Notes: generated by a model from the sequence alone, not told the origin. A DNA stretch of 64,000 bases from Escherichia phage vB_EcoM_Alf5 (KX377933), one strand, 5' to 3'. Positions 1 to 15,013 are shown, numbered from the stretch's first letter. Numbers and translations are program-made.

Positions 1-2367
1 ATGCGCATGGTAAACGACCACGCAGAAGTGATTAAGAGTTCAACTTCTTTGGAGACATCTCAAGCACAGATTACAATGACACCTGAAATGTTCAGCCTTT
101 TGAGTTCCGGTGTATACACATTTAAAGAAAGGGCAGTGATTCGTGAACTGTCGTGTAATGCAGTAGATGCTCAGAAAGAAGCTGGAAAAGAGAACATCCC
201 GTTCCATGTGCATTTACCTACTCGGTTTGAGCCTTACTTTGAAGTCCGTGACTTTGGAACTGGTTTAACCCATGACAAAGTAATGAGTTTGTATCTGAAC
301 TACGGAGCTTCTACGAAGAATGACTCTAATGACTACATTGGTGCAATGGGTATCGGCTCAAAGTCACCGTTTGCGATTGCTCAGTCATTCACAGTGTCTA
401 GCTATGTTGATGGTGTTGTTAATAAGTACTCTGTTTACCTTGAGAATGGTATCCCTCAAGTAACTAAGCTTACTACTAACCAAACAAATGAACCTAATGG
501 TTTAGCTGTACGTGTGGCAGTTGCTGACCACCGTATTTCAAAGTTCTTTGAAGAGGCTGGTCACGTATACTCATACTTTGCTGTAAAACCAGAAAGTAAC
601 ATTGTGTATGATGACGTGTTAGCAGATATGAACGTCATTGCCCGTGAAGAAGGTGTTTATGATGCTATGATTCATAAGCAAAGCTGGCGTTCTAGTGGCA
701 ACAGGACAGATTTTAATGTGGTAATGGGTAATATTGCCTACCCAGTTAATATGGAAGCATTACTTGGTGATGATTTCTTCAAAGTCTTGCCAGAATTTTT
801 CCGTAGGAGCGTAGACCTTGTAAACATCTACATGCCTATTGGTTCAGTGGCTATTGCAGCTTCTCGTGAAGCATTGCAGATGAATGATACGACAAAAAAT
901 GTCATCATTGAGGCTACCAAAAAGATAACTGAAGCAATTACAAGGTATGTTATTAAGGGGGTTAATAGCCAACCTACACTCATGGATGCTGCACAGGCTT
1001 ATGCAGAATTACGTTTGAACTCACGAGAAATGTTTAATGCTGTGTGTCCAAAGCTAGAGTGGGGAGGTGTTAAGCTTGATTCTCTGGAAGAAGAATTGCT
1101 AAACATTCGTCGTGGAATTATCTACGCAGAAGACGGCTCAGTCATCTATGAACGTGACGGCAAAGGCAATATTAAGGTTGACAGCAAAGGAAACAATATC
1201 CCTAAAGTTGACTACCTATACAATCCAGTTGCTTATGTTAAGTTTAACTCTTTAGAGAGTAAGATTCGTGCAACAGCACTTTCCTACACTCAAGAAGCAA
1301 GCATGTTCAATATCTTTGGTGCAATGCGTAAAAGTCAAATTGAACAGTTTTTGTTTGTTATTAATGACCGTCGCAATAAAAATGGTACTGAGAAGACTGT
1401 AGGCCGCAATCAGATTCTGCGTGGTGCATGTCGAGACTACGCCAACGAGTCAAGTTTGTTCCACAGATACAATGGTATTGTGTTTGTATTCTCGACTGAA
1501 AAAGAGTTAGATGATTTAATCAATCTACACAAACTTGATAAAAGCTTGTTAAAGATTGTGAAAATGTCTGATAAGGAGCACCATTACCAGCGCAAAGAAG
1601 CTGTAAGGGGTGTTGTAAAACTCTGGAAAGCTGTTCCAGCAGAAGGTGTAGCTTCCTATAAAGAGGTTTCAGAGGACTTAGACACAATTGAAGAACCTCG
1701 GCTTTACATTAAGGCAATTGGTGACACAGTTGATGGTGAATGTTTTTGCTCATCCCCAGAAGATGTAGCTAAGTCAGTTGCTAATGTTATTGGAAAGACA
1801 GTCTATGTTTTCCGAAAAGCAAATTGGAAAAAGATACCAGAAGACTGGATTGAAGTAGATGAGAAGCTCTTGAACGACAGCTTAACTGATGTTCATTGGA
1901 TTAATCATAACAGGTATATGACACGCATCTACATGAATGGTGTTCTTGACCTTACAAGTAGCTGGATTATTACCAGAAACTTTACGTTCAATAACAGGAA
2001 GATTTCTCGTGGCTATTGCTATTCACGAGACACAAACAAAACTATCTTCTTAGAAGGTAATGAAGATGCTGTTGAGGCAATGTTTGGTAAAATCCAATAC
2101 GTTGCTGCACCGTTTGCATACACTTACACTATCAGTGTTCTTCAGGATTTGAAGTCATGCCTTGACAATGATACAAAACTGTACAAAAAGATTAAGAAAG
2201 CGGGTGACCGCATGGTTATCAAACTGACAAACTATCTTTCAAAAAGAAAACAAGAAAACTTCTTGCTTTCTCATTTAGATTGGAATAAAGTGTCACCCAT
2301 CGAAGTGAGTAAGTTCTTAGGTTTTGATGTGAAGTGTGTTCCAGAAGGAACTACAATTTACGATTAA
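1..2367 (+). CDS. rIIA: rIIA-like protein with N-terminal GHKL-type ATPase fold
   Basis: 788-aa ORF; ELSCNAVDA, DFGTGL and GAMGIGSKS motifs resemble GHKL N/G1/G2 boxes; immediately followed by rIIB-like gene. Confidence 0.75.
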   Translation: MRMVNDHAEVIKSSTSLETSQAQITMTPEMFSLLSSGVYTFKERAVIRELSCNAVDAQKEAGKENIPFHVHLPTRFEPYFEVRDFGTGLTHDKVMSLYLNYGASTKNDSNDYIGAMGIGSKSPFAIAQSFTVSSYVDGVVNKYSVYLENGIPQVTKLTTNQTNEPNGLAVRVAVADHRISKFFEEAGHVYSYFAVKPESNIVYDDVLADMNVIAREEGVYDAMIHKQSWRSSGNRTDFNVVMGNIAYPVNMEALLGDDFFKVLPEFFRRSVDLVNIYMPIGSVAIAASREALQMNDTTKNVIIEATKKITEAITRYVIKGVNSQPTLMDAAQAYAELRLNSREMFNAVCPKLEWGGVKLDSLEEELLNIRRGIIYAEDGSVIYERDGKGNIKVDSKGNNIPKVDYLYNPVAYVKFNSLESKIRATALSYTQEASMFNIFGAMRKSQIEQFLFVINDRRNKNGTEKTVGRNQILRGACRDYANESSLFHRYNGIVFVFSTEKELDDLINLHKLDKSLLKIVKMSDKEHHYQRKEAVRGVVKLWKAVPAEGVASYKEVSEDLDTIEEPRLYIKAIGDTVDGECFCSSPEDVAKSVANVIGKTVYVFRKANWKKIPEDWIEVDEKLLNDSLTDVHWINHNRYMTRIYMNGVLDLTSSWIITRNFTFNNRKISRGYCYSRDTNKTIFLEGNEDAVEAMFGKIQYVAAPFAYTYTISVLQDLKSCLDNDTKLYKKIKKAGDRMVIKLTNYLSKRKQENFLLSHLDWNKVSPIEVSKFLGFDVKCVPEGTTIYD

Positions 2368-2446
2368 AGTGTTTGACAAGGGGCTTCGAAGCCCCTTAGA
2401 ATAGCCTTACAAAATGATTTATTAACTAACAAGAGAGAGTAATAAG

Positions 2447-3556
2447 ATGACTACTAAAACTAAAGCACAGATTGACGCAGAAATTTACGAACTGGTTAAA
2501 GAAGGTAAGCTGACTAAAACAGCTATTGCACAGAAGTTCAATACTTCAACCCGTTCAGTTGGTCGTGCTGTAGAGCGTCATGAAGCAACCTTAAAAGGTA
2601 AGAAAAAGGTAGCTTCTAAACCAGCTACGAAGACTTTGAAGCAAGTTGCTAAATCAGTTAAAAAGAAAGCTGACAAACCAGTTGAAAAGGTTGTTAAAGA
2701 GCCTGTACAGAAAGCTCCGGTAAATAAACTGCATGAAGCTATGCAGAATGGCAACCAGATTGAGTACATGATTACTGGCGACTCTGTTATCATGACTTTC
2801 GGTGCAGATTCTGAAATCGTTGAATCTACCCATCCGAACTACAAAGAAATCGTGATGGCTGTTGTATCAGGTGAGTATAAGAAAGCTTTCGAACTGATGA
2901 ACATTCGTAAGTCTATCGAAAACTTCACTCAGGGTGCTATCACCATCAAAGGTGACAAGTTATTCTACGGTGCTGTTGAGATGCGTTCTACTCTGGTTGA
3001 CCGTATTCTTCACATGATGAAGACTGGAGATAAGGGTTTTGAACGCCTTGTGATGTTCTTCGAAAAACTGATGGAAAACCCATCTAAAGATTCTGTAGAA
3101 CAACTTTGGGGATTCGTATCTCACCTTGATGTTGAAATTGATGAAGAAGGCTACATCATTGGTTGGAAGAAAGTCTCTACTCATGAAGGCAAGCTGGTTG
3201 ACTCCCACACCTACAGAGTACCTAATGATTTGGGTAACATTGTAGAAATGCCACGTTGGATGGTTGATAATAACCGTAACGTGACTTGCTCTCAGGGTCT
3301 TCACGTTGGTGCTTGGGATTATGTTCGTTGCTTCTCAGGTGATACAATCCTGAAGGTTCGTGTCCATCCACGAGATGTTGTATCTGTTCCAACTGATTAC
3401 AACGATATGAAGATGCGTTCGTCTCGTTATGAAGTTGCAGCAATCGTTGATAATCAACGTAAAGTGCTGAAAGAATGGGATGGCAAGACTGAAGCTTTGC
3501 ATGTCATCGTTGGCACTGCTGGTGAACTAATCTCCCAACGTAAACGTGAAATCTAA
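2447..3556 (+). CDS. rIIB: rIIB-like protein
   Basis: 369-aa ORF; C-terminal VHPRDVVSVPTDYNDMKMR and TCSQGLHVG segments match the rIIB pattern as I recall it; adjacent to rIIA. Confidence 0.7.
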   Translation: MTTKTKAQIDAEIYELVKEGKLTKTAIAQKFNTSTRSVGRAVERHEATLKGKKKVASKPATKTLKQVAKSVKKKADKPVEKVVKEPVQKAPVNKLHEAMQNGNQIEYMITGDSVIMTFGADSEIVESTHPNYKEIVMAVVSGEYKKAFELMNIRKSIENFTQGAITIKGDKLFYGAVEMRSTLVDRILHMMKTGDKGFERLVMFFEKLMENPSKDSVEQLWGFVSHLDVEIDEEGYIIGWKKVSTHEGKLVDSHTYRVPNDLGNIVEMPRWMVDNNRNVTCSQGLHVGAWDYVRCFSGDTILKVRVHPRDVVSVPTDYNDMKMRSSRYEVAAIVDNQRKVLKEWDGKTEALHVIVGTAGELISQRKREI

Positions 3557-3573
3557 TAAGTAATTTCTTAAAA

Positions 3574-3597
3574 GGCTGCTTCGGCGGCCTTTTTTAT
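3574..3597 (+). terminator. Rho-independent terminator after rIIB
   Basis: GGCTGC-TTCG-GCGGCC hairpin followed by TTTTTTATTT. Confidence 0.6.
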
Positions 3598-3656
3598 TTG
3601 TATTTTGTGCAGAGTGCTGTATAATTGTTGTCACGATAAACTAAACAGGAGAACCA

Positions 3657-4205
3657 ATGAAGAAATTGATTCTAGGTTTGTGCTTAATGTTTACAGCACA
3701 CTTATCTTATGCAGTTGACTGCCCAGAGCTATCAATTAGCCAAAAAGTAAACATGTTAAAAGCTTACCAGTATGGTGAGAATAACATGGGTAAAGGTTGG
3801 GGTATCACTCTAGCTGCTATAGCCTTACAAGAGTCAGAGTTAGGTCTGAAGGTAGAGAATAAAAAGACACATGATTATGGTATCTTCCAGAATCACTTGA
3901 AGACTGTTGTAAAGCGTAACAAAATCAGTCCTAATGTGGCTAAAAAGAAACTCTTAAAAGATTTTGACTATGCTGCAAAGGAAACACACAAAGAGCTTGA
4001 ATTTTGGACTAAGGTACACGGTCAACCAAAGTCAAAGAAGACTTTACAAAAAGTTTTAGCATCATATAATGCTGGGTATTCATACAAAATTCCTAAAGCT
4101 AAGAAATACTCTCAAGATGTCTATAACAATATGAAAGTCATCGCTCAATGTGAATTTGCAACAAACATTTCTAAGGTAAATCATGAAAAAATTAAGAAAG
4201 TTTGA
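3657..4205 (+). CDS. lytic transglycosylase (SLT domain) with signal peptide
   Basis: N-terminal hydrophobic signal; ES (ALQESELGL), GIFQ and AYNAG-like (ASYNAGYSY) motifs of family 1 transglycosylases. Confidence 0.55.
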   Translation: MKKLILGLCLMFTAHLSYAVDCPELSISQKVNMLKAYQYGENNMGKGWGITLAAIALQESELGLKVENKKTHDYGIFQNHLKTVVKRNKISPNVAKKKLLKDFDYAAKETHKELEFWTKVHGQPKSKKTLQKVLASYNAGYSYKIPKAKKYSQDVYNNMKVIAQCEFATNISKVNHEKIKKV

Positions 4206-4878
4206 TGAAGTATTGTGCCATGCTTATGACTTACATCCTCATGAGTTAGGTCTTGATTCCTGTGTATGGACTCCAGAACAGTGCAGGGATTTTGAAGACA
4301 CCGCAAGAGAAGTTGTATGTTCACTTGAAGAGTTCCACACATCAGAACCAATTGTGAACGTTGTGGACAAAGAGACTGGGCAATCCATAGGTGTAAAACG
4401 TGATAGTTTAGTCATAGTCAACAAAGACCTTGTAGAGAAAGGTAATCTTATCTTAGCAGATATTGATGGAGTTCTTACAAATTTTAATCACGAAGATTGT
4501 TCAACGGAATTGACTGATGGTTCATTTTCACAGTACACTAATCTTCTTGACTCTGTAAGAGCAAAACCAACGTATGTTTTCAATATCATTGATGCAATTG
4601 CTAATCATGCTGCCGTTGGACTCTTGACAGCGAGAGGCGAATCTCAGAGAATACCTACTGAGATGTTTTTAAGGCATAACACAGAGCATGATTATATGCT
4701 TTTTATGCGTGGTTTTGGAACTAACTCTATAAGTGCAGAAAGTTTGAAAGTGAGGATGATTCAGTCTTGCATTCTGCCTTACTTTAATATAGTATGTTTT
4801 ATAGAAGATACAGAGAAGAATGTGCAGAAGGTGAATAGAATCCTTCCACACATCAAAACCATGTTAGTTAAACATTGA
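4183..4878 (+). CDS. hypothetical protein, possible HAD-like hydrolase
   Basis: 231-aa ORF; LILADIDGVLT resembles HAD motif I but lies ~95 aa from N-terminus; weak. Confidence 0.4.
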   Translation: MKKLRKFDEVLCHAYDLHPHELGLDSCVWTPEQCRDFEDTAREVVCSLEEFHTSEPIVNVVDKETGQSIGVKRDSLVIVNKDLVEKGNLILADIDGVLTNFNHEDCSTELTDGSFSQYTNLLDSVRAKPTYVFNIIDAIANHAAVGLLTARGESQRIPTEMFLRHNTEHDYMLFMRGFGTNSISAESLKVRMIQSCILPYFNIVCFIEDTEKNVQKVNRILPHIKTMLVKH

Positions 4879-4888
4879 GAGAAAACTT

Positions 4889-5353
4889 ATGAACAATATC
4901 ATTACGGTAGCACTGGACGTTACGGCAAACAAATCTGAAGTAGTTCGTAACATTATCAAGAACAACTTTGAGGGTAAAATCTTTCGTGCTGTCAACGTAA
5001 AAGCAGACGGTAACATCAGAGAGTATCGTGCTCTTTTGAATGTTAAGAAACACGTCAAAGGTGCTGGTTCAACGACTGCACACAAAGAAAACCTGATGAC
5101 TATCTATGATATGGGTATGGCTTCAGAGTTAGGTGCTGAAGGTATCGTTAAAGAAGGTGCTCCGTATCGCTCTTTCAATCTGGAAACTGCTCTCATGCTT
5201 TCCTTTACAAGTGGTTCTAAAACAACTACTTATCTCTTTACTGATGCTGCAACGGTATCTGCTATCAAGGATAACGCTATCAAAGCTGGGGTAGCTGCTG
5301 CTGCAAAAGCTTCTTCGATGGCTGCAAATGTCCTTGCTAAAGTCCTCGGTTAA
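4889..5353 (+). CDS. hypothetical protein
   Basis: 154-aa ORF with RBS-like spacing, followed by terminator. Confidence 0.45.
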   Translation: MNNIITVALDVTANKSEVVRNIIKNNFEGKIFRAVNVKADGNIREYRALLNVKKHVKGAGSTTAHKENLMTIYDMGMASELGAEGIVKEGAPYRSFNLETALMLSFTSGSKTTTYLFTDAATVSAIKDNAIKAGVAAAAKASSMAANVLAKVLG

Positions 5354-5365
5354 GGTTAAGATACA

Positions 5366-5390
5366 GGCTCCTTCGGGAGCCTTTTTCATT
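5366..5390 (+). terminator. Rho-independent terminator
   Basis: GGCTCC-TTCG-GGAGCC hairpin followed by TTTTTCATTTT. Confidence 0.6.
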
Positions 5391-5405
5391 TTAGGAGATT
5401 GTTAA

Positions 5406-5753
5406 ATGACATTTAAAGAGTTCTGTCAAGCTACTTTCATAATTGTTTTCTTAGTTGGGGCAGGTGTCTGGGGAGGATATTCTTACAGAGACTATCAAGT
5501 TGCTGAAACTGAGCTAAACAATCAAAAGCTCATAAGTGTTGCTAAAGATGCTTATCAGGAAGGATTAGTCACACTGAGCACTAATTACAAAAATGATTTG
5601 AAAGATGTGCTTGCTAAGAATAAGCATACAAAAGAGGTGCTAACATATGAAAAAACTAAGCCAGAGTTTTATAATGTTTGTGTTACTGATAACTATGTCA
5701 GGGTGTTCAACGAACAAAGTGAACAGTACATTCAAAAACTCCCAAGTAAGTGA
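5406..5753 (+). CDS. i-spanin-like protein (N-terminal TM, periplasmic coiled region)
   Basis: 115-aa ORF with N-terminal hydrophobic helix FIIVFLVGAGVWGG; overlaps next ORF in another frame. Confidence 0.4.
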   Translation: MTFKEFCQATFIIVFLVGAGVWGGYSYRDYQVAETELNNQKLISVAKDAYQEGLVTLSTNYKNDLKDVLAKNKHTKEVLTYEKTKPEFYNVCVTDNYVRVFNEQSEQYIQKLPSK

Positions 5754-5916
5754 GAGTGATAAGTACACTCAAGAAGAATCACGGTATATTATCAAAGGTA
5801 ACACTGGCAGTGACGTAGCAGCAGCCCTTGAGTTCTATCGTGATGGCTTTTACCAGTGTACAATCAAAGCTAATAACCTTATTGATATGATTTTATTAGG
5901 GAATAAGCAGCAATGA
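5647..5916 (+). CDS. o-spanin-like lipoprotein (overlapped with i-spanin)
   Basis: 89-aa ORF; signal peptide with lipobox-like LITMSGC; starts inside the preceding ORF in a different frame. Confidence 0.4.
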   Translation: MKKLSQSFIMFVLLITMSGCSTNKVNSTFKNSQVSESDKYTQEESRYIIKGNTGSDVAAALEFYRDGFYQCTIKANNLIDMILLGNKQQ

Positions 5917-6182
5917 CAGAGAATGAAGATACTTTTTACGTAGAAGGTTACTTACTGTTACCACGACCAAAAGAAACTTATATGCGAATTGATTTCTTAC
6001 CAACCATTATGGATAATGTGATGTGCCATATCTTTATGCAAGGTGTCACATCACAACTTAAGCATGTTGGCAAAGAGTGCAAAATAAAGGTTGACACTCA
6101 TCCAGAAATCAAAGAAAATCACTACACATGGTTCTTACCAGACTCTAAAGAAATCTTAGCAGTTCTTAAAACGAGGAAGTAA
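5913..6182 (+). CDS. hypothetical protein
   Basis: 89-aa ORF, start overlaps stop of upstream gene (ATGA). Confidence 0.4.
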   Translation: MTENEDTFYVEGYLLLPRPKETYMRIDFLPTIMDNVMCHIFMQGVTSQLKHVGKECKIKVDTHPEIKENHYTWFLPDSKEILAVLKTRK

Positions 6183-6184
6183 CT

Positions 6185-6508
6185 ATGCAGATTAATGGAA
6201 GAGACTTTGTAGCCGTTTACTACGAGAAGGGTAAAGAGGTTGGTGTAGCACAAGTAACTTATGGTAATGGTAAGTGGTTATACGGAACAATAGCAGTAGT
6301 CGGAACAAGAAGTGATACAAAAACTTTTAAAGATTGTGTTGACCTTCTTGAAGAATCCATCCAGAATCATTGGTGTCTGATATGGATGACTGACGACGAA
6401 GTGAAGGAGCGTTTCAAAAAGATTGATATCAACATTGACAGTATTGAGCATGTTGATTTGTATGAACTAACCGAAAAGGTAAGCTATGAAAGCTCTAGAG
6501 GTAATTGA
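6185..6508 (+). CDS. hypothetical protein
   Basis: 107-aa ORF tightly packed in operon. Confidence 0.4.
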   Translation: MQINGRDFVAVYYEKGKEVGVAQVTYGNGKWLYGTIAVVGTRSDTKTFKDCVDLLEESIQNHWCLIWMTDDEVKERFKKIDINIDSIEHVDLYELTEKVSYESSRGN

Positions 6509-6925: not shown

Positions 6926-7711
6926 ATGGGTATTGTAAAAATCATCAAAGGTGATATCTTTGACGCATTTGATAAAGGTAAATTTGATATCATTGGTCAT
7001 GGTTGCAACTGTATGAATTTCATGGGTGCAGGTATTGCAGCAACTATTTCTAAGCGTTATCCAAAAGTATATGATACTGATACAGAAGTTTACCTGTTTG
7101 CAGGTGGCATTCGCCACAAACCCTGTGAAAATTTACTAGGTAATTTTTCTGTAACACGTTTAAAGCAAGGTCGTATAGCTAACCTTTATACGCAACTTCA
7201 TACTGGTAAAGATGCCCGATACAGTGCTTTAGAGTCATCTTTGAAACAGCTTAACAGATACTGTGAAGTTAACCAGTTGAAGAAAGTTGGTCTACCTATG
7301 ATTGGTGCAGGTATCGGTGGACTCGACCCTCAAGCTGTCACAGTTATCATCAATCAGGTGATGAAGAGTGTAGATGTTTATCTTTATGTCTACGAAGCGG
7401 GAATGTACAATGAGTTACATTCAGGTTGGAAGAACTACTGTGAACCAGAATACTTTGCAGGCGTAGCTGTGTTCACAGACAATGCAGTTACCCTCTTCAG
7501 ACGAAGAAAAGGTAAGACACATCAAAGTAACCCTCCGGTTGAAAAGATGTCTCTGAGTAACGCTCTAGTTACCCACCTGTCGAAGAACAATCACAGGATT
7601 GCAGTGACATTTGGCAGTGATGCGGATACTTATATCTATGCAAGAACTGATGAGGATATCGAGTTAATCTTCTCTTCACCAGAGCTTACCTTCTTAGACG
7701 CAAAGAACTAA
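6926..7711 (+). CDS. macro-domain protein (TARG1/Poa1p-like ADP-ribose hydrolase fold) with C-terminal extension
   Basis: GDIFDAF...IIGHGCNCMNFMGAGIAATI and GLPMIGAGIGGLD match macro-domain signature segments. Confidence 0.6.
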   Translation: MGIVKIIKGDIFDAFDKGKFDIIGHGCNCMNFMGAGIAATISKRYPKVYDTDTEVYLFAGGIRHKPCENLLGNFSVTRLKQGRIANLYTQLHTGKDARYSALESSLKQLNRYCEVNQLKKVGLPMIGAGIGGLDPQAVTVIINQVMKSVDVYLYVYEAGMYNELHSGWKNYCEPEYFAGVAVFTDNAVTLFRRRKGKTHQSNPPVEKMSLSNALVTHLSKNNHRIAVTFGSDADTYIYARTDEDIELIFSSPELTFLDAKN

Positions 7712-7779
7712 GAAACTTCGTAGCATATTCACAATAGACTAAGCCTTTCTTATCTGGTAAATTTTTTCAGGTAAGGAGG

Positions 7780-7975
7780 GCTTTTTCATTTTAGAATTGT
7801 GCAGGTAGAGTTCTGTAGAGAAATCTGTAGAGAGGATTTTGAACTCCAAAGAGAAAATTCATTTTCAAACTGTGCAGGTAATCTCCAAAGAGCTTTTTCA
7901 TTTTCAAAACGTGCAGAGAAAAATCAGGTCGGGCAAGAAAAATCATTTGAGAATTGTGCAGGTAGGTGGGTGTAG
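7780..7975 (+). repeat. four direct copies of a ~24-bp motif TCATTTT-N6-TGTGCAGGTA
   Basis: ttcattttagaattgtgcaggtag, ttcattttcaaactgtgcaggtaat, ttcattttcaaaacgtgcagag, aatcatttgagaattgtgcaggtagg. Confidence 0.5.
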
Positions 7976-8143
7976 GTGGGGCTGTCGCCATTTCTCACAA
8001 GGCTACCACATCTGAAAATAAAAGTCAACATAAAAATTTGTAGCGGATTGAAAAATAATTCTTGATTGTAGTTCTGTTTTGTGGTAATCGCGCGCACACC
8101 CGTTTCATTACATTTTTGCCAAAAATATTTTTAAAAATTTTCA

Positions 8144-8172
8144 TTGACTCCTTGAACGGGTTTTTATAGTAT
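8144..8172 (+). promoter_or_regulatory. sigma70-like early promoter
   Basis: TTGACT, 17-bp spacer, TAGTAT; ~50 bp upstream of first cassette gene. Confidence 0.5.
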
Positions 8173-8225
8173 TTGCATCAGACAGGGCGACAAGCCCGAC
8201 AGCCTTAAACTAGGAGAACTTAAAA

Positions 8226-8432
8226 ATGCTATACGGTCGTGAATTGATGGTTACAACTAACGTTAACACAAAGGTAAAACGTTTTTACATGCAAATCTGT
8301 GGCGTATGGTCTAGAATATCAGAAGCTGACTATTGCAACTATGTAGAAACGGCAATCAACTCTGATTGCTACCTTACAAGAAATACAAGAAAGCACATAA
8401 GACAGATAGCAGTTTATTACTACGATATCTAA
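8226..8432 (+). CDS. hypothetical early protein
   Basis: 68-aa ORF preceded by conserved leader ccttaaactaggaga...aaaATG. Confidence 0.4.
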   Translation: MLYGRELMVTTNVNTKVKRFYMQICGVWSRISEADYCNYVETAINSDCYLTRNTRKHIRQIAVYYYDI

Positions 8433-8519
8433 TAAAGTACTTTACAGGGGGCTTAAAAGTTGATATCTTAAGCCCCAGATAAAGAGCTTTACCACTAAAT
8501 CCTAAATTGGAGAATCAAA

Positions 8520-8816
8520 ATGAAGTTATCGAATAAAGTTCGTGAAAATTTGAGCAAGTTACTTAATAAAATTGATTTCATTGAAACATCAAGAAATAGC
8601 CACGATGTTATGGAATGGCTACACGGAAAAATTAAAGGCCGTCGTGTAGTGATTTGCTTATGGAATAGTTGCAGGGAGTATAAAAACCCTGTATTGCAAG
8701 TCAATATTTACGATGATACTTCTAAAAGTCCAGTAAAGTCTAAAAGTGACTTATTAGAATCCTATGAGATAACTGTAAGCGGCAAAGTATCACGTAAAGA
8801 GGAAACACCATGTTAA
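8520..8816 (+). CDS. hypothetical early protein
   Basis: 98-aa ORF preceded by type-A hairpin-leader module. Confidence 0.4.
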   Translation: MKLSNKVRENLSKLLNKIDFIETSRNSHDVMEWLHGKIKGRRVVICLWNSCREYKNPVLQVNIYDDTSKSPVKSKSDLLESYEITVSGKVSRKEETPC

Positions 8817-9142
8817 TGACTGGCATCACTGCAATCATTGCCATTTTCGCGCTCTATAAGGCATATAAAGCCTATAATTTAGCAGATAAGGCAATCACAC
8901 AACAAGTCAGTAATGGACTTGTGAGGGGCTTTCTGGAGCGTTTAAGCGATGAGCAAATAAAGCGGTTAGAGATGAGCTTCAGATATAAAGCAAAAACCCA
9001 CCAGATAAGTGACATCTTTAAAGATGATTTTCAGTTAGTCGATGATTATAATTCTCTGATAAATGCTTTAAATATCAGTGACTTAAAAGACTACTACGCT
9101 GTAATTGTTCAAGAACTGAGCAAACGAAAAAATTTATCTTGA
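8810..9142 (+). CDS. hypothetical membrane protein
   Basis: 110-aa ORF, N-terminal hydrophobic helix, start overlaps upstream stop. Confidence 0.4.
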   Translation: MLMTGITAIIAIFALYKAYKAYNLADKAITQQVSNGLVRGFLERLSDEQIKRLEMSFRYKAKTHQISDIFKDDFQLVDDYNSLINALNISDLKDYYAVIVQELSKRKNLS

Positions 9143-9232
9143 TTTTGATTTTAAAAACAAGTAAATTACTAATCAACGGGGAGGGAATGACCTTCCCCAC
9201 TACATAAAGCCCTTAAACTAGGAGATTCTAAA

Positions 9233-9505
9233 ATGTATACTACTAACAACGGTCGCACCTTAAACGTAACCCTGCGCCACTATGTGAACGGCGTAATGCA
9301 CTTCGAGGATTTACAAGCTGAACAACATATTCTTGATTGGCAACTTGCAGGACTGCAAAAAACTGCTACAGGATACGGGAAAAAGATTCCAACCAGTTGG
9401 AAAGTATACTACGAAGGCCGTTTGCGTAGAATTTATCAAGATGTGCAAAGTAATAGCGCATCAAGTTACATCATAGTAAAAGGTAAAAAACTGCATTTAG
9501 TATAA
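9233..9505 (+). CDS. hypothetical early protein
   Basis: 90-aa ORF preceded by type-B hairpin (GGGGAGGG...CCCC) and leader with AGGAG RBS. Confidence 0.4.
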   Translation: MYTTNNGRTLNVTLRHYVNGVMHFEDLQAEQHILDWQLAGLQKTATGYGKKIPTSWKVYYEGRLRRIYQDVQSNSASSYIIVKGKKLHLV

Positions 9506-9592
9506 AAAGTACTTTACAGGGGGCTTATAGTTCGATAAAGTAAGCCCCAGATAAAGAGCTTTACCACTAAATCCTAAATTGGAGATTCAAAA

Positions 9593-9997
9593 ATGGCTAT
9601 TAATAACCGTGAGTTATCAATCTTAAAAGCACGTTTGACAGTTAACCGGATTAATGTTCTGACATCATCAGCACCTGATGAAACATTGCACAACATTATT
9701 GGGAAGATTCAAAGTGTTATCTTAGACGTTGAAAACGTGAAAAACTCATTAACTGACGTTGCAGCAGGTATCACGCTAGACGGTGCACAATATGAAATGG
9801 CTGACATGTTGGGCAAATCTAAGGTAATGAATAAAGAGCTTGATTTAAAAATGTTCAGATTCGCCGTAAAAGTATGGCTATCCGTCGAGTATGATGCTAA
9901 TTATGCAATCGCTGACTTTTTCGCCACTTGGTTGCAGCGTAATTTGTCAAATCACGACTTCCGTAATATCTGTGATGCAATTTATGCAGAACTTTAA
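9593..9997 (+). CDS. hypothetical early protein
   Basis: 134-aa ORF preceded by type-A hairpin-leader module. Confidence 0.4.
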   Translation: MAINNRELSILKARLTVNRINVLTSSAPDETLHNIIGKIQSVILDVENVKNSLTDVAAGITLDGAQYEMADMLGKSKVMNKELDLKMFRFAVKVWLSVEYDANYAIADFFATWLQRNLSNHDFRNICDAIYAEL

Positions 9998-10006
9998 AAA
10001 TTTTTG

Positions 10007-10036
10007 TTGACACTGGTTTTTATATATATATTAAAT
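10007..10036 (+). promoter_or_regulatory. sigma70-like promoter
   Basis: TTGACA followed by AT-rich TATATATATT -10 region. Confidence 0.4.
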
Positions 10037-10104
10037 TACACATCAACGGGGAGGGAATGACCATCCCCCCACTAAATAAAACCCTTAAACTAGGAGATTC
10101 AAAA

Positions 10105-10308
10105 ATGGCTATTATTAACGGCTTAACCATTGAAACCACACACATCAAAGACATTAAAGCCGGGGATGTAGTTCTTTTTCACGGCGTAGAAAAAACCGTC
10201 ACGGCGAAAGATATTACAGAGGACTCCTTCATGGGTCGGTCGCTCTTCGGTGATTCCTATTGCTTAGGTTACCGTGCTGTTTTAAAAGTTGTCAAAAATA
10301 ACCGATAA
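10105..10308 (+). CDS. hypothetical early protein
   Basis: ORF-track 10057 start lies inside the conserved leader; ATG at 10105 has AGGAG RBS. Confidence 0.4.
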   Translation: MAIINGLTIETTHIKDIKAGDVVLFHGVEKTVTAKDITEDSFMGRSLFGDSYCLGYRAVLKVVKNNR

Positions 10309-10393
10309 AGTAATTTACAGGGGGCTTAAAAGTTGATATCTTAAGCCCCAGATAAAGAGCTTTACCACTAAATCCTAGACTGGAGATTCAAAA

Positions 10394-10936
10394 ATGAAAT
10401 GCTTTCACGGTACTACTCAAGAAAACTTCCTCAACCTGATTAATAACGGCGATAAACCATCAGGCGCATGGAATTGTTCGGACATGGACGGTAATTTTTA
10501 CGTGTATCCAGAAAATAAAATCTATGGCGACGATGAAGAAGAGATGACAGCCGAAGGCATTCAGCAAGCATTAGGTAATGCCACTATTACGGCCGCTTTC
10601 CAGATGAAAACTCAAAATATTGTTATCTTGGAACTTGATATTCCAGAGGATGAGCTGAATGATGATTATTCTTGTGATAATATGTCTGGCGTGGCAAGTT
10701 TTACAGAGTACTTTGATGCAAGTTGGATTAAAAAGGTTTACGTAACCGAGTTTAATGCGATGTTTTCGCCTTTTTGTCTTCCTCCACTGGATAACCCAAA
10801 TTTAAACTATCTTGATGAGTCTCTGGAACTTCTTGCTAAAAGCGTTCAACAGTCGGACAGTATTCAGGTTTTTTGTGACATCATGGACACACTGACAGGA
10901 AACATCACAGAGAGAGATTTAAAGAGCTTTTTCTAA
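10394..10936 (+). CDS. strongly acidic hypothetical protein
   Basis: 180-aa ORF rich in D/E (DDEEEM, DIPEDELNDDY); type-A leader upstream. Confidence 0.45.
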   Translation: MKCFHGTTQENFLNLINNGDKPSGAWNCSDMDGNFYVYPENKIYGDDEEEMTAEGIQQALGNATITAAFQMKTQNIVILELDIPEDELNDDYSCDNMSGVASFTEYFDASWIKKVYVTEFNAMFSPFCLPPLDNPNLNYLDESLELLAKSVQQSDSIQVFCDIMDTLTGNITERDLKSFF

Positions 10937-10967
10937 AACCTATATAATCACCTTATAAACACTAATT

Positions 10968-10988
10968 AGCCCCTTGTAGGGGCTTTTA
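10968..10988 (+). terminator. Rho-independent terminator
   Basis: GCCCC-TTGTA-GGGGC hairpin followed by TTTT. Confidence 0.5.
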
Positions 10989-11001
10989 GAGGGCTTAAAT
11001 C

Positions 11002-11235
11002 ATGCTTACAACCATTTATCTCATCCTTTCCATCTGTAATGGTCATTCATGCGATTTTAAAGGGCTTGAGGAGTTTACAGGAAGTAAAGAAAATGCTATT
11101 CAAGTTTGCCAGATAGCAAGGCAAGACTACCCCGCAAGTGATGATATTCAATGCTACTTTAAGACAGAAGACGACGACGGCATTTATTTTGATAGTGTTG
11201 ATGGTCAATATGAAATTATCATTGAAAAAGACTAG
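11002..11235 (+). CDS. hypothetical protein
   Basis: 77-aa ORF. Confidence 0.35.
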   Translation: MLTTIYLILSICNGHSCDFKGLEEFTGSKENAIQVCQIARQDYPASDDIQCYFKTEDDDGIYFDSVDGQYEIIIEKD

Positions 11236-11326
11236 ACAAGCCTGATAAAAATCTGTAAATTGTCAATCAACGGGGAGGGAATGACCTCCCCCACTAAATA
11301 AAACCCTTAAACTAGGAGATTCAAAA

Positions 11327-11668
11327 ATGGCTCACGTAACTGTAATTACCAATAAACCGGATTCATCTTGGTCAACTCAAGTAAGTGATAAGATGACACC
11401 TATGCAGTGCCTAAAATACTTTGAGCAATGGAATAAAGGCGAGGATGTAAGCCCCTTCCAAGTAATGCAGATTATTCATGTAGACAATGAAGGGAAGAAA
11501 ACAACCCTGAGCAGCGAGTACTATGCAAACCGATTTGAAACGAGAAGTAAAGCAATGAAGCTTCTACGTGAATCAGGTTATGCTCATATTGCCGCACTAA
11601 TCTGGGATGACCTGCTAAAAATCCAACGTGCTAACTATGTAAAGCCTGAAAAAATATTCATCAGTTAA
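11327..11668 (+). CDS. hypothetical early protein
   Basis: 113-aa ORF preceded by type-B hairpin-leader. Confidence 0.4.
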   Translation: MAHVTVITNKPDSSWSTQVSDKMTPMQCLKYFEQWNKGEDVSPFQVMQIIHVDNEGKKTTLSSEYYANRFETRSKAMKLLRESGYAHIAALIWDDLLKIQRANYVKPEKIFIS

Positions 11669-11889
11669 TCAACAACTTACAAAAAACTTTCAAAAAAGTG
11701 TTGACAATACCCATTGACATTGGTAATGTTGTTCGAGGGGGGTTTATCTAAAAGGGATTCACTTAAAAGGTTCTTTATAGATAAGCTTAAAAAATTGCTT
11801 GCAATCAGCTATCAAAACAAGTAAATTACTAATCAACGGGAGGGATGACCTCCCCACTAAATAAAACCCTTAAACTAGGAGATTCAAAA

Positions 11890-12420
11890 ATGAACAAGTT
11901 CAAAGCCATCAACTATATTCGTTCAAATGCTGTAATGTCAAAGCCTGTCAAAGATACCTACGAATTTCGCTGCAATGGTGTACACTTCGCAACCATCACC
12001 AAATCAGAAAACGGGGCTTATTACGTCCATCGTCGTAATGTTGCAACCGTTGTAGTCTCTCACTTTATGCAAGCTGTAGCAGAATTATTACCGCTATTTT
12101 TAGGGATTTACTTGGATGAGTGTAAAAACGTTCATAGCCACGTTAAAAACCTTTTAAATAGCTATAAAATGGCTTATGAGCGTTCAATCAAGACCTTAAA
12201 CAAGTTTTATAAAGCCCCTGTAAATACTGTTTCAATGGCTTACGCTTCAAACGGTGAAAGAGTAAACTTATCCGATGTGGAAGATATCGAGCTTTACGAC
12301 CATCGACCTAACGGTTACGCTAAAACCATCGGTGAAGGTTTAACGTTCAATATCAAGAACTTAGAAAAAACTTTAAAAGATATTGAAAAAGATATTGACG
12401 AGACAATCAAAAATCTGTAA
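11890..12420 (+). CDS. hypothetical early protein
   Basis: ATG at 11890 follows the conserved AGGAGATTCAAAA leader; the track start 11845 lies in the hairpin. Confidence 0.4.
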   Translation: MNKFKAINYIRSNAVMSKPVKDTYEFRCNGVHFATITKSENGAYYVHRRNVATVVVSHFMQAVAELLPLFLGIYLDECKNVHSHVKNLLNSYKMAYERSIKTLNKFYKAPVNTVSMAYASNGERVNLSDVEDIELYDHRPNGYAKTIGEGLTFNIKNLEKTLKDIEKDIDETIKNL

Positions 12421-12489
12421 ATTGTCAATCAACGGGGAGGGAATGAACTTCCCCACTAAAATAAAACCCTTAAACTAGGAGATTCAAAA

Positions 12490-12738
12490 ATGGCAACTAT
12501 CCGCGCTACTGTAAATGCTTATGGCTGTTATACTCTGGACGTTAAATTTGATATCGGCGGAACTGATGAATGCTTTTCCTTAGTGAAGACAGTTATCAAG
12601 CAAGTTATCCCAGACTATAACCCTACTGATGACTTCTGGAAAGATGCCGTAAAAGAGGCCATAAACGATGAGCATCACTATCATTACTGGGGTGATTTGA
12701 TTGTCTCCCTGTACTACAGCAAACAAGGTTACAACTAA
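12490..12738 (+). CDS. hypothetical early protein
   Basis: 82-aa ORF preceded by type-B hairpin-leader. Confidence 0.4.
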   Translation: MATIRATVNAYGCYTLDVKFDIGGTDECFSLVKTVIKQVIPDYNPTDDFWKDAVKEAINDEHHYHYWGDLIVSLYYSKQGYN

Positions 12739-12758
12739 TCGACGCAACGGGGCTATTT

Positions 12759-12802
12759 AGCCCCAGATACCTGAACAGACCCTACTCAAAGGGGCTTTTT
12801 TA
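12759..12802 (+). terminator. terminator with alternative upstream hairpin
   Basis: AGCCCC...GGGGCT stem followed by TTTTTT; upstream GGGGCT could pair with the same AGCCCC instead. Confidence 0.4.
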
Positions 12803-14389
12803 CGTCTATCGAATCCTTATACAACCCCTTTCCCTTTCCTTTCCAGAATCTTACTAGACCTTAAAAAGCAATAACTCTACAGTCTACTCTATAACCTCTT
12901 ATCAAATCAACTTAAATATAAGCCCATAACCCGAAAGGGAAGGGCAACCCCTTAAACGCTCTATAACGCCCTATAACAGCCTTATCACCCTAACTTAAGC
13001 AATCATATTAACCCACCCTAAAAAGCCCTTTATAAAGCTTCTGAGAGCCTTAAAAGAATCTTATAAGGGTGTAAGCTTATAGGCTGGCTAGTATCTTGTG
13101 AATGATTAAACAAACCCCTTGATAGCTATTAAAAAGCATGTTATAGGGGTTATAAAGTTACTTTGAAGTAGCTTAAAAGTTACGTAAATGCTAGCCCCCT
13201 TAACAATTTCTTAACAATTTCTTAACAATTTCTTAACAAACCTACATAGTTATTCTTGTTAGCACCTTGTTAAATCTCTGTTAAGACCACGTAAAAACCT
13301 TGTAAGAACCTTTGGCATAGCCTTAAAAGCTCCTGTAAAGCCCTATAAAGAGCTATCCATACAGTTGATGGGTAAATACTAGGGAGGGACTTAAAAGAGC
13401 CTATAAAGAGCTTTTAAGAGCTTTTAAGAGGTATGTTTAAGAAGTCACTAAGAAAGGAAAGGGAACGATAAGAAAAGAGTAGTGACCATGTTAATAGCTT
13501 GTTAAAAAGATTAAACACTTGTTAGGAACTTGTTAATTATCTTAACAAAATAACTCTTTAAAATTAACTTGTTAGCTCTTGTTAGTCATCTGTTAAGATT
13601 CTGTAAAGCCTATTCAGCACTTGTTAAGAATCTGTTACAGCCTTGTTAGTTCTGTTAAGAAACTGTTAAGACCTTTGAAGAGTTGTTAAGAAGATGTGAG
13701 AACTGTTAAGAAACTGTTAATGATATTTTAAAATTCTGCAAAGTACTTGTAAGGGAGCTGTTAAGGGCTACCAAGCAGATATACATCTTCTACAGATATT
13801 TTTCAGTTCCTTCAAAGACCCTAAAAAAAAAAAATGACTTGATAGTCCTATTTTATAAAAATTTTAAAATTCTGAATAATTACCTATACAGTCTTTTAAA
13901 AATACAGGTAGAAACAGGCTTATAAGATACCTTGTTAGTACCGTGTTAGACCTTGTGAGATAAGGTCTGTGAAGATATTCCTGTTAAGTTTGTTAAAACA
14001 GTCTATATAGAGGCTTAGTAATACCTAGTGAACACCTATAGAGAGTGTCATAGCTAACCTAGAGATTAAGAGGTGTATGGGAGCTTCTAAGAGAGTATAG
14101 AGAGATGGTTAAGGTGATTGTATAGGTTGTTTAGAAGGCTTGTTAGAGGGCTTGTTAGAAGGGTTATACAGAGGGCTATTAAGACCACTAGATAGTTACT
14201 AAGATACTATATAGTACTATATAACTATATAGAGAGTAAGATTAAGAAGGCTGTTAAGAAGGATAGATATTTTATTCACATATGATGGTGACCCAGAGGT
14301 TGGGACAACCGATAAAATTTTATAAAAATATAAATTTCGTAAATTTTACTCAATAAAAAGCCCCCAATTAAGGAGGCTCTTAAGATATT
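12803..14389. repeat. ORF-free iteron-rich region
   Basis: more than 30 copies of YTGTTAR, many CTTWWAAG palindromes, poly-A and AT-rich tract near 13826-13880; lies between convergent gene blocks. Confidence 0.6.
13199..13240. repeat. tandem repeat, 11-bp unit TTAACAATTTC, about 3.7 copies
   Basis: cttaacaatttcttaacaatttcttaacaatttcttaacaaa read directly. Confidence 0.7.
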
Positions 14390-15013
14390 TTAAATCAGTG
14401 TTTCCAGAACTGTTTTCAATGATGACTTGGTTGTCTGATAAAAATGAGTAAATCCATTGTTATTATCGAATACCTGCATCATGATATCATCACCCTTGAT
14501 TGGGTAAACTCGGATATCATAGTGAAAACCATTAAAGACACAAGAGCCATTACAGAATGCACTAAAGTCATCAACTGAGATATACTCTTCATGTCCTGTG
14601 ATTTTTATACAAACGCCTTTACTCGGTCTCTTAGGGTTGATATCTTCCATCACAGACATACTCTGTCCACCAAGAGATACCATAGTGACCACTTTACGGT
14701 TCTTCTGTCTAAAGTACATTTTAACTTTCTGCAAAGTGTCTTCATAGAACGGATAAGACCTTTCTACAAAGATTCCTTCAAGTGGCTCTTTACCATTTTC
14801 AACTTCTCTGTTATGCCGTACTGCAAAGATAATTTGTTCGAACCAGTCAAGATTTTCTTCGGAGAGTGCTTCTCGAACATCACTCCAGTCAAGTACTAGA
14901 TAGTTACCTTCAACATCTTTTAAGTTATCTTTTTCCATATCTATCACACCATTATCGTAAAACTTGATATTCTGGTACTGCGAATTTATTACTATTGTTC
15001 TTGATGAGGTCAT
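14390..15013 (-). CDS. hypothetical protein
   Basis: 207-aa ORF; in-frame Met at 14938 would avoid overlap with the upstream gene. Confidence 0.45.
   Translation of the reverse strand: MTSSRTIVINSQYQNIKFYDNGVIDMEKDNLKDVEGNYLVLDWSDVREALSEENLDWFEQIIFAVRHNREVENGKEPLEGIFVERSYPFYEDTLQKVKMYFRQKNRKVVTMVSLGGQSMSVMEDINPKRPSKGVCIKITGHEEYISVDDFSAFCNGSCVFNGFHYDIRVYPIKGDDIMMQVFDNNNGFTHFYQTTKSSLKTVLETLI

Follow-up and report, generated by a model that had tools for sequence, protein, structure and literature searches.

What are the short repeated modules that stand before a run of small early genes in Escherichia phage vB_EcoM_Alf5 (KX377933), and what could they do there? Within the 64,000 nucleotides analysed here (the window), which represent a Felixounavirus (Felix O1-type, Ounavirinae) with 96.5% identity to phage pinkbiff, an initial annotation had placed two alternating kinds of hairpin-leader module, A and B, before each of eleven small ORFs between positions 8140 and 12802. 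That repeated modules of two kinds exist, far above chance, is confirmed by exact-repeat counts and by repeat families: a window search finds five copies of a 24-nt B leader, three of a 25-nt A core and four of a B hairpin anchor, all on the plus strand and all within 8140-12802, against a chance expectation of 0 in 64 kb, and repeat families of 84-96 nt with 64-93% identity agree with these counts. Judging by the sequence, we consider it probable that this is a hyperplastic early-gene region in which single-gene cassettes are set apart by composite regulatory modules of the promoter-early stem-loop (PeSL) kind.

The eleven ORFs, all on the plus strand, encode 67-180 aa and span 8226-12738 (8226-8432, 8520-8816, 8810-9142, 9233-9505, 9593-9997, 10105-10308, 10394-10936, 11002-11235, 11327-11668, 11890-12420 and 12490-12738). 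As had been claimed, they are mutually unrelated: the ten that were tested fall into ten different PHROGs, all of unknown function, and none of these ten has a Pfam match. Homologues in Felix O1 are transcribed at 5-25 min after infection according to RT-PCR (PMC3185647), and these timings do not distinguish genes with an A module from genes with a B module. Type A modules precede ORFs 8520, 9593 and 10394 (n=3), type B modules precede ORFs 9233, 10105, 11327, 11890 and 12490 (n=5), and ORF 8226 has a B-like module (n=1); ORFs 8810 and 11002 have neither, so the claim of a module ahead of every ORF holds only in part. Strict alternation does not survive, the actual order being B', A, none, B, A, B, A, other, B, B, B. 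ORF 8810 overlaps the preceding ORF by 7 nt and is translationally coupled to it. The element before ORF 11002 (10968-11004, plus strand) consists of a terminator-like hairpin (AGCCCC-TTGTA-GGGGCT, 10968-10984), TTTT, GAGGG and the ATG; it resembles a weak terminator in its sequence, and relatives keep it ahead of the same gene family.

The array opens with the putative first early promoter, P1 (8144-8228, plus strand), recognized by sequence reading, promoter scan and fold. Its hexamers TTGACT (8144-8149) and TAGTAT (8167-8172), 17 nt apart, follow a 22-nt tract of 95% A+T and are followed by a small hairpin of its own (GGGCGACAAGCCC; GGGC-GACAA-GCCC, 8185-8197) and a B-type leader (CCTTAAACTAGGAG) with GGAG at 8213-8216 and ATG at 8226. 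In relatives, P1 is borne by whatever gene comes after the macro-domain gene. At the other end (12749-12802, plus strand; sequence, repeat family D11 and fold), an A-like remnant hairpin, GGGGCT-ATTT-AGCCCC followed by AGATA (12749-12769), precedes an intrinsic-terminator-like CCCT..AGGGGC stem with T6 (12780-12801); terminator t23 of Felix O1 lies at the same position.

The type B repeat had been read as a hairpin followed by a leader. The repeat is real, but what appears to be a sigma-70 promoter comes first, with the hairpin downstream of its -10. In the first module (9139-9235), -35 TTGATT (9139-9144), -10 TAAATT (9162-9167) and TCAAC (9173-9177) lead to the hairpin GGGGAGGG-AATGA-CCTTCCCC (9178-9198), the leader and the ATG at 9233. 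The second (10007-10107; TTGACA 10007-10012, TAAATT 10032-10037, hairpin 10048-10070, ATG 10105) has a spacer of 19 nt through expansion of a TA repeat, compared with 17 in relatives. The third (11233-11329) has TAGACA at 11233-11238, TAAATT at 11256-11261, a hairpin at 11272-11292 and its ATG at 11327; the fourth (11799-11892) has TTGCAA at 11799-11804, TAAATT at 11822-11827, a shortened hairpin, GGGAGG-GATGA-CCTCCC, at about 11838-11855 and its ATG at 11890; and the fifth (12395-12492) has TTGACG at 12395-12400, TAAATT at 12418-12423, a hairpin at 12434-12454 and its ATG at 12490. All five are on the plus strand. The -35 of the first overlaps the stop codon of ORF 8810-9142, that of the third includes the stop codon of ORF 11002-11235, and that of the fifth lies in the coding end of ORF 11890-12420, whose TAA stop is within the -10.

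Across 207 type B instances, the -10 is TAnnnT in every case, and the -35 at 17-nt spacing is conserved as T203/T180/G203 (n=207); the genes upstream provide ten non-homologous contexts. The tract ahead of the promoter has 78% A+T versus 61% for the window. The hairpin always starts 5 nt after TCAAC and, in all 207, 10-11 nt after the -10. From these features we infer promoter activity, type B being a probable sigma-70 promoter with a downstream G/C hairpin: the AT-rich tract, TTGnnn, 17-nt spacer and TAnnnT would be used by host sigma-70 polymerase, with the -35 placed in or on the end of the upstream gene. Transcripts would start in the TCAAC motif, as predicted from the position of the -10, and the hairpin would therefore sit 2-3 nt from the mRNA 5' end, its first base at about +3/+4 if transcription begins 7-8 nt after the -10. 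Folds place it at nt 4-24 of the predicted transcript with the Shine-Dalgarno site open; the suggestion that the modules exert translational control thus finds no support in these models. The stems vary (GGGGAGGG/CCUUCCCC, GGGC/GCCC, GGGGAAG/CUUCCCC), and among unique variants the plus strand is the more stable in 56 and the minus strand in 41, a slight excess only.

A hairpin within 2-4 nt of an mRNA 5' end is positioned to block 5'-end-dependent RNase E decay, and the ompA 5' UTR hairpin reportedly acts as such a 5'-terminal mRNA stabiliser (Emory, Bouvet and Belasco, 1992). The type B hairpin, stable and near the predicted 5' end, would most likely be a stabiliser of this sort and may attenuate read-through as well; it differs from the ompA case in that its start site is predicted from the -10 and that read-through transcripts carry the hairpin too. 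It is unlikely that the hairpins are instead ordinary terminators or attenuators, with the remainder a conserved ribosome-binding region of no recombinational role. They are intergenic and G/C-rich, the ASO1B GenBank records label some B hairpins as WebGeSTer 'rho-independent terminators', and a PeSL stem-loop cut downstream lacZ as much as rrnB T1 did (PMC2839356, PMC4122927). However, no A or B hairpin is followed by a T-run, making canonical intrinsic termination unlikely, and a terminator scan gave no hit on the plus strand within the array; genuine T-run terminators flank the array on both sides, at 7735-7785 and 12780-12801. B hairpins, moreover, lie downstream of a near-consensus promoter and would thus be included in the new transcript, and cassette content varies among relatives with its junctions in the modules.

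Type A is built differently. Its hairpin had been noticed but described too short: the full form is a bipartite structure of 62 nt that starts directly at the stop codon of the upstream gene and shares its sequence with a conserved -35/-10 pair. Its lower stem has 11-12 bp and its upper stem 9 bp, with a 3x3 internal loop, conserved as CAN/AGA, between them and an apical loop of 11-13 nt. Module 1 (8433-8522) has its hairpin at 8433-8491, TTTACA at 8441-8446, TATCTT at 8464-8469, a predicted start near A8477, GGAG at 8509-8512 and ATG at 8520, and folds at -21.9 kcal/mol (z -4.7). The corresponding features of module 2 (9506-9595) are a hairpin at 9506-9562, TTTACA 9513-9518, TAAAGT 9536-9541, AGA 9549-9551 and ATG 9593 (-21.5 kcal/mol, z -4.6), and those of module 3 (10306-10396) a hairpin at 10306-10364, TTTACA 10314-10319, TATCTT 10337-10342, AGA 10350-10352 and ATG 10394 (-20.2 kcal/mol, z -4.2); all are on the plus strand.

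Compensatory changes in the stems, which had been claimed from the window, are weak there and become clear once relatives are compared. Among 133 unique type A copies, 2389 pairs are Watson-Crick, 226 G.U and 11 A.C; both stems show GC<->UA covariation with 98.4% of cells paired, and the covariation score is 0.141 versus 0.080 in shuffles (0/500). Type A in Erwinia phage follows the same pattern with GGUG/CACC stems. Because G.U pairs so outnumber A.C pairs and the stems covary, the type A hairpin is under RNA-level selection on the plus strand. The promoter-like pair is conserved as well: TTTACA is found in 177/178 copies and the 17-nt spacer in 167/178, the -10 is TAnnnT, the sole invariant bases of the apical loop are the TA of the -10 (-12/-11), and at least 90% of copies, from four genera, have a T at -7. 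Since all type A modules are homologous, this conservation could partly reflect shared descent; it could also partly reflect an RNA- or protein-binding constraint and not promoter use.

The hairpin would be able to form only in transcripts coming from upstream, for which it is likely an insulator, a 3'-end protector or a processing site, and the overlapping TTTACA-17-TAnnnT would act as a second promoter, starting RNAs at the conserved AGA 3' of the upper stem. T7 and T3 early genes, read as an operon by host polymerase, are separated by RNase III processing hairpins; sites of this type are intercistronic helices of about 20 bp, often with an internal loop holding the scissile bond. The type A hairpin may resemble the T7 R1.1-type substrate. 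A tentative alternative is that type A hairpins are primarily such RNase III-type sites, cutting B-started polycistronic early mRNAs into monocistronic ones while the upstream piece retains a protective 3' hairpin, and that the promoter-like hexamers are incidental. Right after the stop codon, two helices (9 and 11-12 bp, about 20 bp in total) enclose the conserved CAN/AGA loop, a geometry that would suit cleavage, the selection acts on RNA, the hairpin is always tied to the upstream gene, and A elements are confined to units beginning with a B promoter. Like the T7/T3 elements, these hairpins are of about 60 nt, with two stems about an internal loop, past a stop codon and before a ribosome site; the T7 sites, however, do not overlap promoters, and T7 has three left-end promoters, whereas there is one here per one to five genes. 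RNase III, moreover, has no need of an invariant loop TA exactly 17 nt from an invariant TTTACA, nor of the -7 T kept in four genera. RNA processing, proposed earlier for the modules, is possible for type A on structural grounds, and compatible with our main explanation, not exclusive of it.

What joins the two types is the leader. Every module carries a nearly identical A-rich leader of 25-45 nt with GGAG 8 nt before the ATG, which would give each cassette, whichever its type, the same strong translation start. The contrast drawn earlier between TTGGAG in A and CTAGGAG in B is seen in the window but dissolves in relatives, where Shine-Dalgarno variants are shuffled over genes and module types. 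A further point had been missed: the hairpin/promoter part of a module goes with the upstream gene family, which fixes the module type, and only the Shine-Dalgarno leader is common to both types. The same downstream gene can receive A or B. Every copy points the same way and keeps its register, a stop codon preceding it and a Shine-Dalgarno site plus ATG following it; A elements occur only within units opened by a B promoter. In the window the modules are confined to this one array, and beyond it they are found in Ounavirinae only, Erwinia phages included.

The description of the modules as portable expression cassettes is supported by comparison among relatives: whole single-gene units differ, with the junctions in modules. 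The 25 complete arrays have 21 architectures, n-u and u-n gene orders both being found. Across 38 relatives, 187 of 215 homology-block ends (87%) fall inside modules, which make up 26% of the region (P ~1e-79, the counts being drawn from related genomes in which events are not independent). In a 752-bp indel relative to L013, both flanks are homologous to the whole of A module 1, and the junction may lie anywhere within the module. We propose that the modules, above all the shared leader, serve as direct repeats of 25-95 bp for homologous recombination, which would delete, insert or reorder genes along with their 3' modules, perhaps via mini-circles. It is very improbable that the modules act instead as DNA, whether as cruciform or single-strand hairpin sites for a recombinase or nuclease, as N4-type promoters or as selfish REP/MITE-like repeats. 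The clustering of breakpoints would suit that idea, and the PeSL authors speculated that the GGGG..CCCC stem is the target of a DNA-binding recombination protein. However, the excess of G.U over A.C points to selection on plus-strand RNA and not on a symmetrical duplex, the copies share one orientation and register and are restricted to a single array, A-B crossovers must fall in the hairpin-free leader, and Felix O1 has no RNA polymerase of its own (PMC3185647).

PeSL cassettes are known from the T4-like phages RB49/phi1, PST/T4 and nt-1/KVP40 (Arbiol et al. 2010, PMC2839356; Comeau et al. 2014, PMC4122927), where their definition includes a stable stem-loop, often polyG..polyC, in one of five positions relative to the promoter, among them between the two hexamers, overlapping the -10 and downstream of it. 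A stretch rich in A+T lies upstream, and the 3' end carries a Shine-Dalgarno site followed by an ATG. The modules here share the AT-rich tract (75-78% A+T at -57..-36 versus 61% for the window), sigma-70-like hexamers about 17 nt apart in both types, a GGGG..CCCC stem-loop that spans the spacer and -10 in A and lies 10 nt past the -10 in B, and a 3' end made of a Shine-Dalgarno site (GGAG throughout) and the ATG of a small ORFan. They are also clustered in a hyperplastic early region, close relatives differ at the modules by indels, replacements and half-elements that have degraded, and the type A -35 TTTACA fits the PST/T4 PeSL consensus TTTACW-N17-TAYWAT. They differ in lineage, Ounavirinae and not Tevenvirinae, and in forming two very uniform classes in one array, whereas the T4-type cassettes are scattered over several hyperplastic regions; occurrence in T4-like phages is where PeSLs were described, not how they work. 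Further differences are the long, bipartite type A hairpin (about 20 bp; its conserved internal loop includes the -35), the type B hairpin predicted inside the transcript (+4 to +24), and the near-identical leader common to all modules, apparently the main crossover site. PeSLs are further marked by demonstrated promoter strength, terminator or attenuator activity and mini-circles that form by recombination between neighbouring elements, traits that are putative for the modules here. The searchable literature yielded neither experimental 5'/3' ends nor reporter data nor RNA-seq from any phage of the Ounavirinae. Rfam gave no family match, its sole hit being a sub-threshold chance one on the minus strand.

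The same sequences have been listed before. The 57-bp direct repeat of the Felix O1 genome paper (CTTTACATGGGGCTTAAAAG...CTTTACCACT) is type A and its 39-bp direct repeat (TTGACACTGGTTTTTAGATAGATTAAATTACACATCAAC) is the type B promoter, and repeats DR_7 and DR_9 of the wV8 GenBank record also match modules; these listings give them only as direct repeats, without a structural, regulatory or evolutionary reading. Read as proposed here, the modules fit the sequence-level definition of the T4-type PeSL cassettes, in this case in the Ounavirinae.

The array of small early genes at 8140-12802 is bounded on the left by a macro-domain 'phosphatase' gene and the terminator of that gene, and on the right by a 1.6-kb non-coding stretch. 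This 4.7-kb region has matches in 251 phage records, nearly all of them Felix O1-like, with Escherichia phage pinkbiff as the top match (96.5%); the window also has rIIA at its start and contains 24 tRNA genes, as does Felix O1. In the related phage UAB_Phi87, the genome ends carry 608-bp terminal repeats. All 11 small ORFs of the array, named here by their start positions, lie on the + strand. Each of the ten ORFs tested fell into its own PHROG, all ten being of unknown function, and none of them had a Pfam match; the ORFs are thus real, conserved and mutually unrelated, the last point in agreement with the initial annotation. Their homologues in Felix O1 are transcribed, with a maximum at 5 min for ORFs 16, 20, 21 and 22 and at 25 min for ORFs 17, 19 and 23 (PMC3185647). 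A search of the literature on transcriptomes, promoters and stem-loops found no transcription start site or RNA-seq data for Felix O1 or the Ounavirinae.

The repeated modules between these ORFs are real and not due to chance: five type B leaders, three type A cores and four type B hairpin anchors are present, all on the + strand and within the array, where shuffled sequences are expected to give none. The repeat families are 84-96 nt long. No further module was found in the remaining 58 kb of the window or in Felix O1 1-6500 and 54000-86155, and an Rfam scan of 7600-13500 (E≤1) returned nothing relevant and no family matching the modules. A module had been proposed ahead of each of the 11 ORFs, which holds for eight of them: type A precedes ORFs 8520, 9593 and 10394, and type B precedes ORFs 9233, 10105, 11327, 11890 and 12490. 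ORF 8226, the first, comes with a promoter of its own (P1), a B-type leader and a small hairpin of another kind; ORF 8810 overlaps the preceding ORF and lacks a module; and ORF 11002 lies downstream of a different, terminator-like hairpin. Nor do the two types strictly alternate along the array, as had first been thought.

The flanking non-coding regions contain repeats of their own. Just upstream of P1, a 510-nt gap holds four copies of a 28-34-nt repeat ending in TTCATTTTCAAAcTGTGCAG (7777-7961), with a weaker copy at 3585-3612; these may be operator or regulator sites. At the other end, 1.6 kb without ORFs (12803-14390) extend from the array to convergent - strand genes and contain 16 of the 28 YTGTTARRA sites of the window, for which 12 would be expected in the whole 64 kb. 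Among these sites lie three tandem CTTAACAATTT units (13199-13239) and an array with a 31-nt period (13578-13720). The region looks like a candidate iteron field (origin, packaging or regulator-binding region), and several GenBank relatives have a 'repeat_region' annotated at this place.

With one exception, the type B copies in the window have a -35-like hexamer exactly 17 nt upstream of a conserved TAAATT. The hexamers are TTGATT, TTGACA (19-nt spacing), TAGACA, TTGCAA and TTGACG, and they overlie or sit inside the 3' ends of five different upstream genes. Across 207 type B modules in 39 genomes, with ten non-homologous upstream contexts, the -10 reads TAnnnT in every case, and the -35 at 17-nt spacing carries T, T and G in 203, 180 and 203 modules, respectively. 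The 22 nt upstream of the -35 are 78% A+T, against 61% window-wide. These data provide strong in silico evidence that type B modules are sigma-70 promoters, and some of them are already annotated as promoters in two GenBank records. The type B hairpin always starts 5 nt past a TCAAC motif, whose placement puts it 10-11 nt past the -10, while its stem varies from copy to copy (GGGGAGGG/CCUUCCCC with a G.U pair, GGGAGG/CCUCCC, GGGC/GCCC, GGGGC/GCCCC and GGGGAAG/CUUCCCC). Since transcription usually starts 7-8 nt past the -10, the predicted mRNA 5' end is about 3 nt from the hairpin. When the predicted 5' UTRs were folded, the hairpin formed and the Shine-Dalgarno region stayed essentially open. 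Type B modules would start transcription units whose mRNA the 5' hairpin would protect.

Several variations on the type B theme were also seen. In B2, the module ahead of ORF 10105, a TA-repeat expansion (10013-10037; TATATATATAT compared with TAGATAGAT in relatives) sets TTGACA 19 rather than 17 nt from TAAATT, which probably makes this promoter copy weaker. An additional near-consensus promoter, TTGACA-17-TAATGT, lies at 11701-11729, ~95 nt upstream of the promoter of B4 (the module ahead of ORF 11890), within a 221-nt gap (11669-11889) that is kept in relatives. This predicted promoter would serve a small RNA, a short leader or an ORF of ~30-36 aa; an ORF with a TTG start occupies 11714-11824, and the LMP33 record has a 30-aa CDS annotated at the same place. 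In Erwinia phage phiEa104 (L039, 5700-7660), which is among the subfamily's most distant members, the TTGACA-17-TTAAAA of B-like modules lies inside GAGGGG..CCCCUC, with CATCAAC after the hairpin and not before it. Within the subfamily, then, the hairpin has moved with respect to the promoter, since here the G/C hairpin sits over the -10.

The type A hairpin is present as the initial annotation had described, but is bigger, a 62-nt bipartite fold of -20 to -22 kcal/mol (z -4.2 to -4.7). Its lower stem of 11-12 bp (AAAGUACUUUA/UAAAGAGCUUU) starts at or within the upstream stop codon and is followed by a 3x3 internal loop (CAN/AGA), a 9-bp upper stem and a loop of 11-13 nt. Over 21 stem positions in 133 unique copies, we counted 2389 Watson-Crick pairs, 226 G.U pairs, 11 A.C pairs and 167 mismatches of other kinds, the majority of them at one fixed A.A or G.A position. 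A G.U pair on the + strand corresponds to A.C on the - strand, so the 20-fold excess of G.U over A.C shows that type A is selected as + strand RNA. Across relatives, the compensatory changes proposed for the stems were borne out in both of them, with GC exchanged for UA at pair 7 of the lower and pair 2 of the upper stem and with CG/UG/UA series at other positions; 98.4% of cells are paired, and the covariation score is 0.141 vs 0.080 in shuffled controls (0/500), a signal that collapses once the partners are slid. The structure is kept in phiEa104 with stems GGUG/CACC. This strand asymmetry, together with the single orientation and fixed register of the modules, speaks against their acting at the DNA level or as selfish repeats, a disfavoured reading. 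The same three properties and the unrelated ORFs also led us to reject N4-type hairpin promoters, REP/MITE-like elements and recent tandem gene duplication.

A promoter-like pair is embedded in type A as well. Of 178 copies, 177 have TTTACA and 167 have a 17-nt spacer, and the hexamer at the -10 position is nearly always TAnnnT with differing inner bases (TAAAGT, TATCTT, TAAGAT, TAGTAT, TACCTT, TATGAT and others). In an alignment of 39 sequences from four genera, the TA of the -10 are the sole invariant bases of the apical loop, and T is found at -7 in at least 90%. An RNA hairpin alone requires neither the invariant TA nor the -7 T. From the embedded promoter, transcripts would start at the conserved AGA; since this promoter comes after the 5' arm of the hairpin, the structure can form only in transcripts from the upstream gene. 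On such read-through RNA, type A hairpins would act as insulators, 3' protectors or processing sites, and the overlapping promoter would restart transcription. In the main rival reading, the hairpin serves first of all as an RNase III-type site, like those between T7 early genes. Its geometry fits such a role, but a promoter better accounts for the invariant TA and TTTACA. Neither role precludes the other. That the hairpins are plain terminators is disfavoured, as no U-tracts follow them and the cassette content varies among relatives.

This variation was followed by comparing the array with 12 GenBank relatives and 26 IMG/VR contigs, a comparison that the initial annotation had called for. 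Gene order is collinear, whereas content is highly variable: 25 end-to-end complete arrays show 21 architectures of 9-17 genes each, and both n-u and u-n orders of two cassette genes (designated, like the others, by single letters) are found. The upstream gene family sets the module type: A invariably comes after nine of the families, and B after six. A downstream gene can take either (g, 14 B and 14 A; u, 6 and 6; o, 32 A and 5 B; q, 25 B and 10 A), and leader variants near the Shine-Dalgarno site (CTAGGAG, CTGGAG and TTGGAG) are mixed over genes and module types. The exchanged unit is therefore the ORF plus its 3' promoter/hairpin, and many crossovers must fall in the shared leader, which would supply homology for recombination as well as uniform strong translation starts. 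Alignment with a 95% identical contig (L013) shows that 752 bp, comprising two genes and two A modules, are absent from the window, and the whole 97-nt A module at 8426-8522 aligns with both flanks of this indel, as expected from direct-repeat recombination. Felix O1 is without exactly the three genes that lie between two B modules. Overall, 187 of 215 homology-block ends fall in modules, which make up 26% of the region (binomial P ~1e-79, the events not being independent). Degraded half-modules remain at the array end (12749-12769) and at the q-q junction of Shigella phage Sf14.

In Sf14 (L012, 8627-9384), gene q is tandemly duplicated, and the second copy has ahead of it only an A module reduced to its 3' half, with neither hairpin nor promoter. 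The 52-aa product of cassette gene y (L005 2520-2678 and 25 other phage records) is 100% identical in 23 of 26, while the array DNA around it is typically ~10% divergent among Felixounavirus relatives, which suggests that y has recently spread horizontally within the genus. Two variable cassette genes searched for beyond the subfamily were found in Ounavirinae only, with no sign of exchange with other phage groups.

The closest known parallel is the promoter-early stem-loop (PeSL) cassette of T4-like phages. As set out in the passages describing it (PMC2839356, PMC4122927), a PeSL has an AT-rich tract, sigma-70-like -35/-10 boxes, a Shine-Dalgarno site and ATG at its 3' end, and a stem-loop, frequently polyG..polyC, that takes one of five places: between the boxes, over either, upstream or just past the -10. 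PeSLs cluster in hyperplastic regions and are tied to indels, replacements and mini-circles (PMC2839356, PMC4122927). All the sequence-level features so described are present in the array modules, type A matching the class 'between -35 and -10 / over the -10' and type B the class 'after the -10'. Unlike the T4-like PeSLs of those passages, the modules belong to Ounavirinae, are limited to one array, fall into just two very uniform classes and share a near-identical leader, and in type A the lower stem is long and the internal loop conserved. The repeats themselves are already on record: the Felix O1 genome paper gives the repeat of type A and one from a B promoter as direct repeats and nothing more, and the wV8 record tags the same repeats DR_7 and DR_9. 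In the Felix O1/Ounavirinae literature, we found no published interpretation beyond 'direct repeats'; the interpretation, RNA-level evidence and cassette rules appear to be new and to extend a known concept. On the sequence evidence, this real and coherent feature is best filed with the PeSL-type cassettes for regulation and recombination, which it records in a new phage subfamily.

We consider rather improbable a joint reading in which type A is dual-use (as RNA, a hairpin processed by a nuclease or protein; as DNA, a promoter), the GGAG leader is a shut-off handle and genes are exchanged as mini-circles. Were it true, an RNase III-type enzyme, another nuclease or a protein would process type A in incoming RNA, leaving each gene self-insulated with defined RNA ends; one phage- or host-encoded factor would shut off the entire early class via the invariant leader; and excised mini-circles of module-flanked genes would pass among co-infecting Ounavirinae, giving phages outside the T4 group an exchange system dedicated to host-takeover or anti-defence genes.

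The predicted start and processing sites are now concrete and testable, and the modules offer compact natural parts of ~95 bp that combine a strong predicted promoter, a 5' hairpin and a ribosome site. The G.U/A.C asymmetry shows that a promoter-overlapping stem-loop is selected as RNA, a point that the cited passages of the PeSL papers do not address. The idea that regulatory cassettes are recombination linkers shuffling accessory early genes reaches a second, unrelated group of virulent myoviruses, one in wide use for typing and biocontrol, and accounts for the differing small early genes among Felixounavirus genomes that are ~90% identical.
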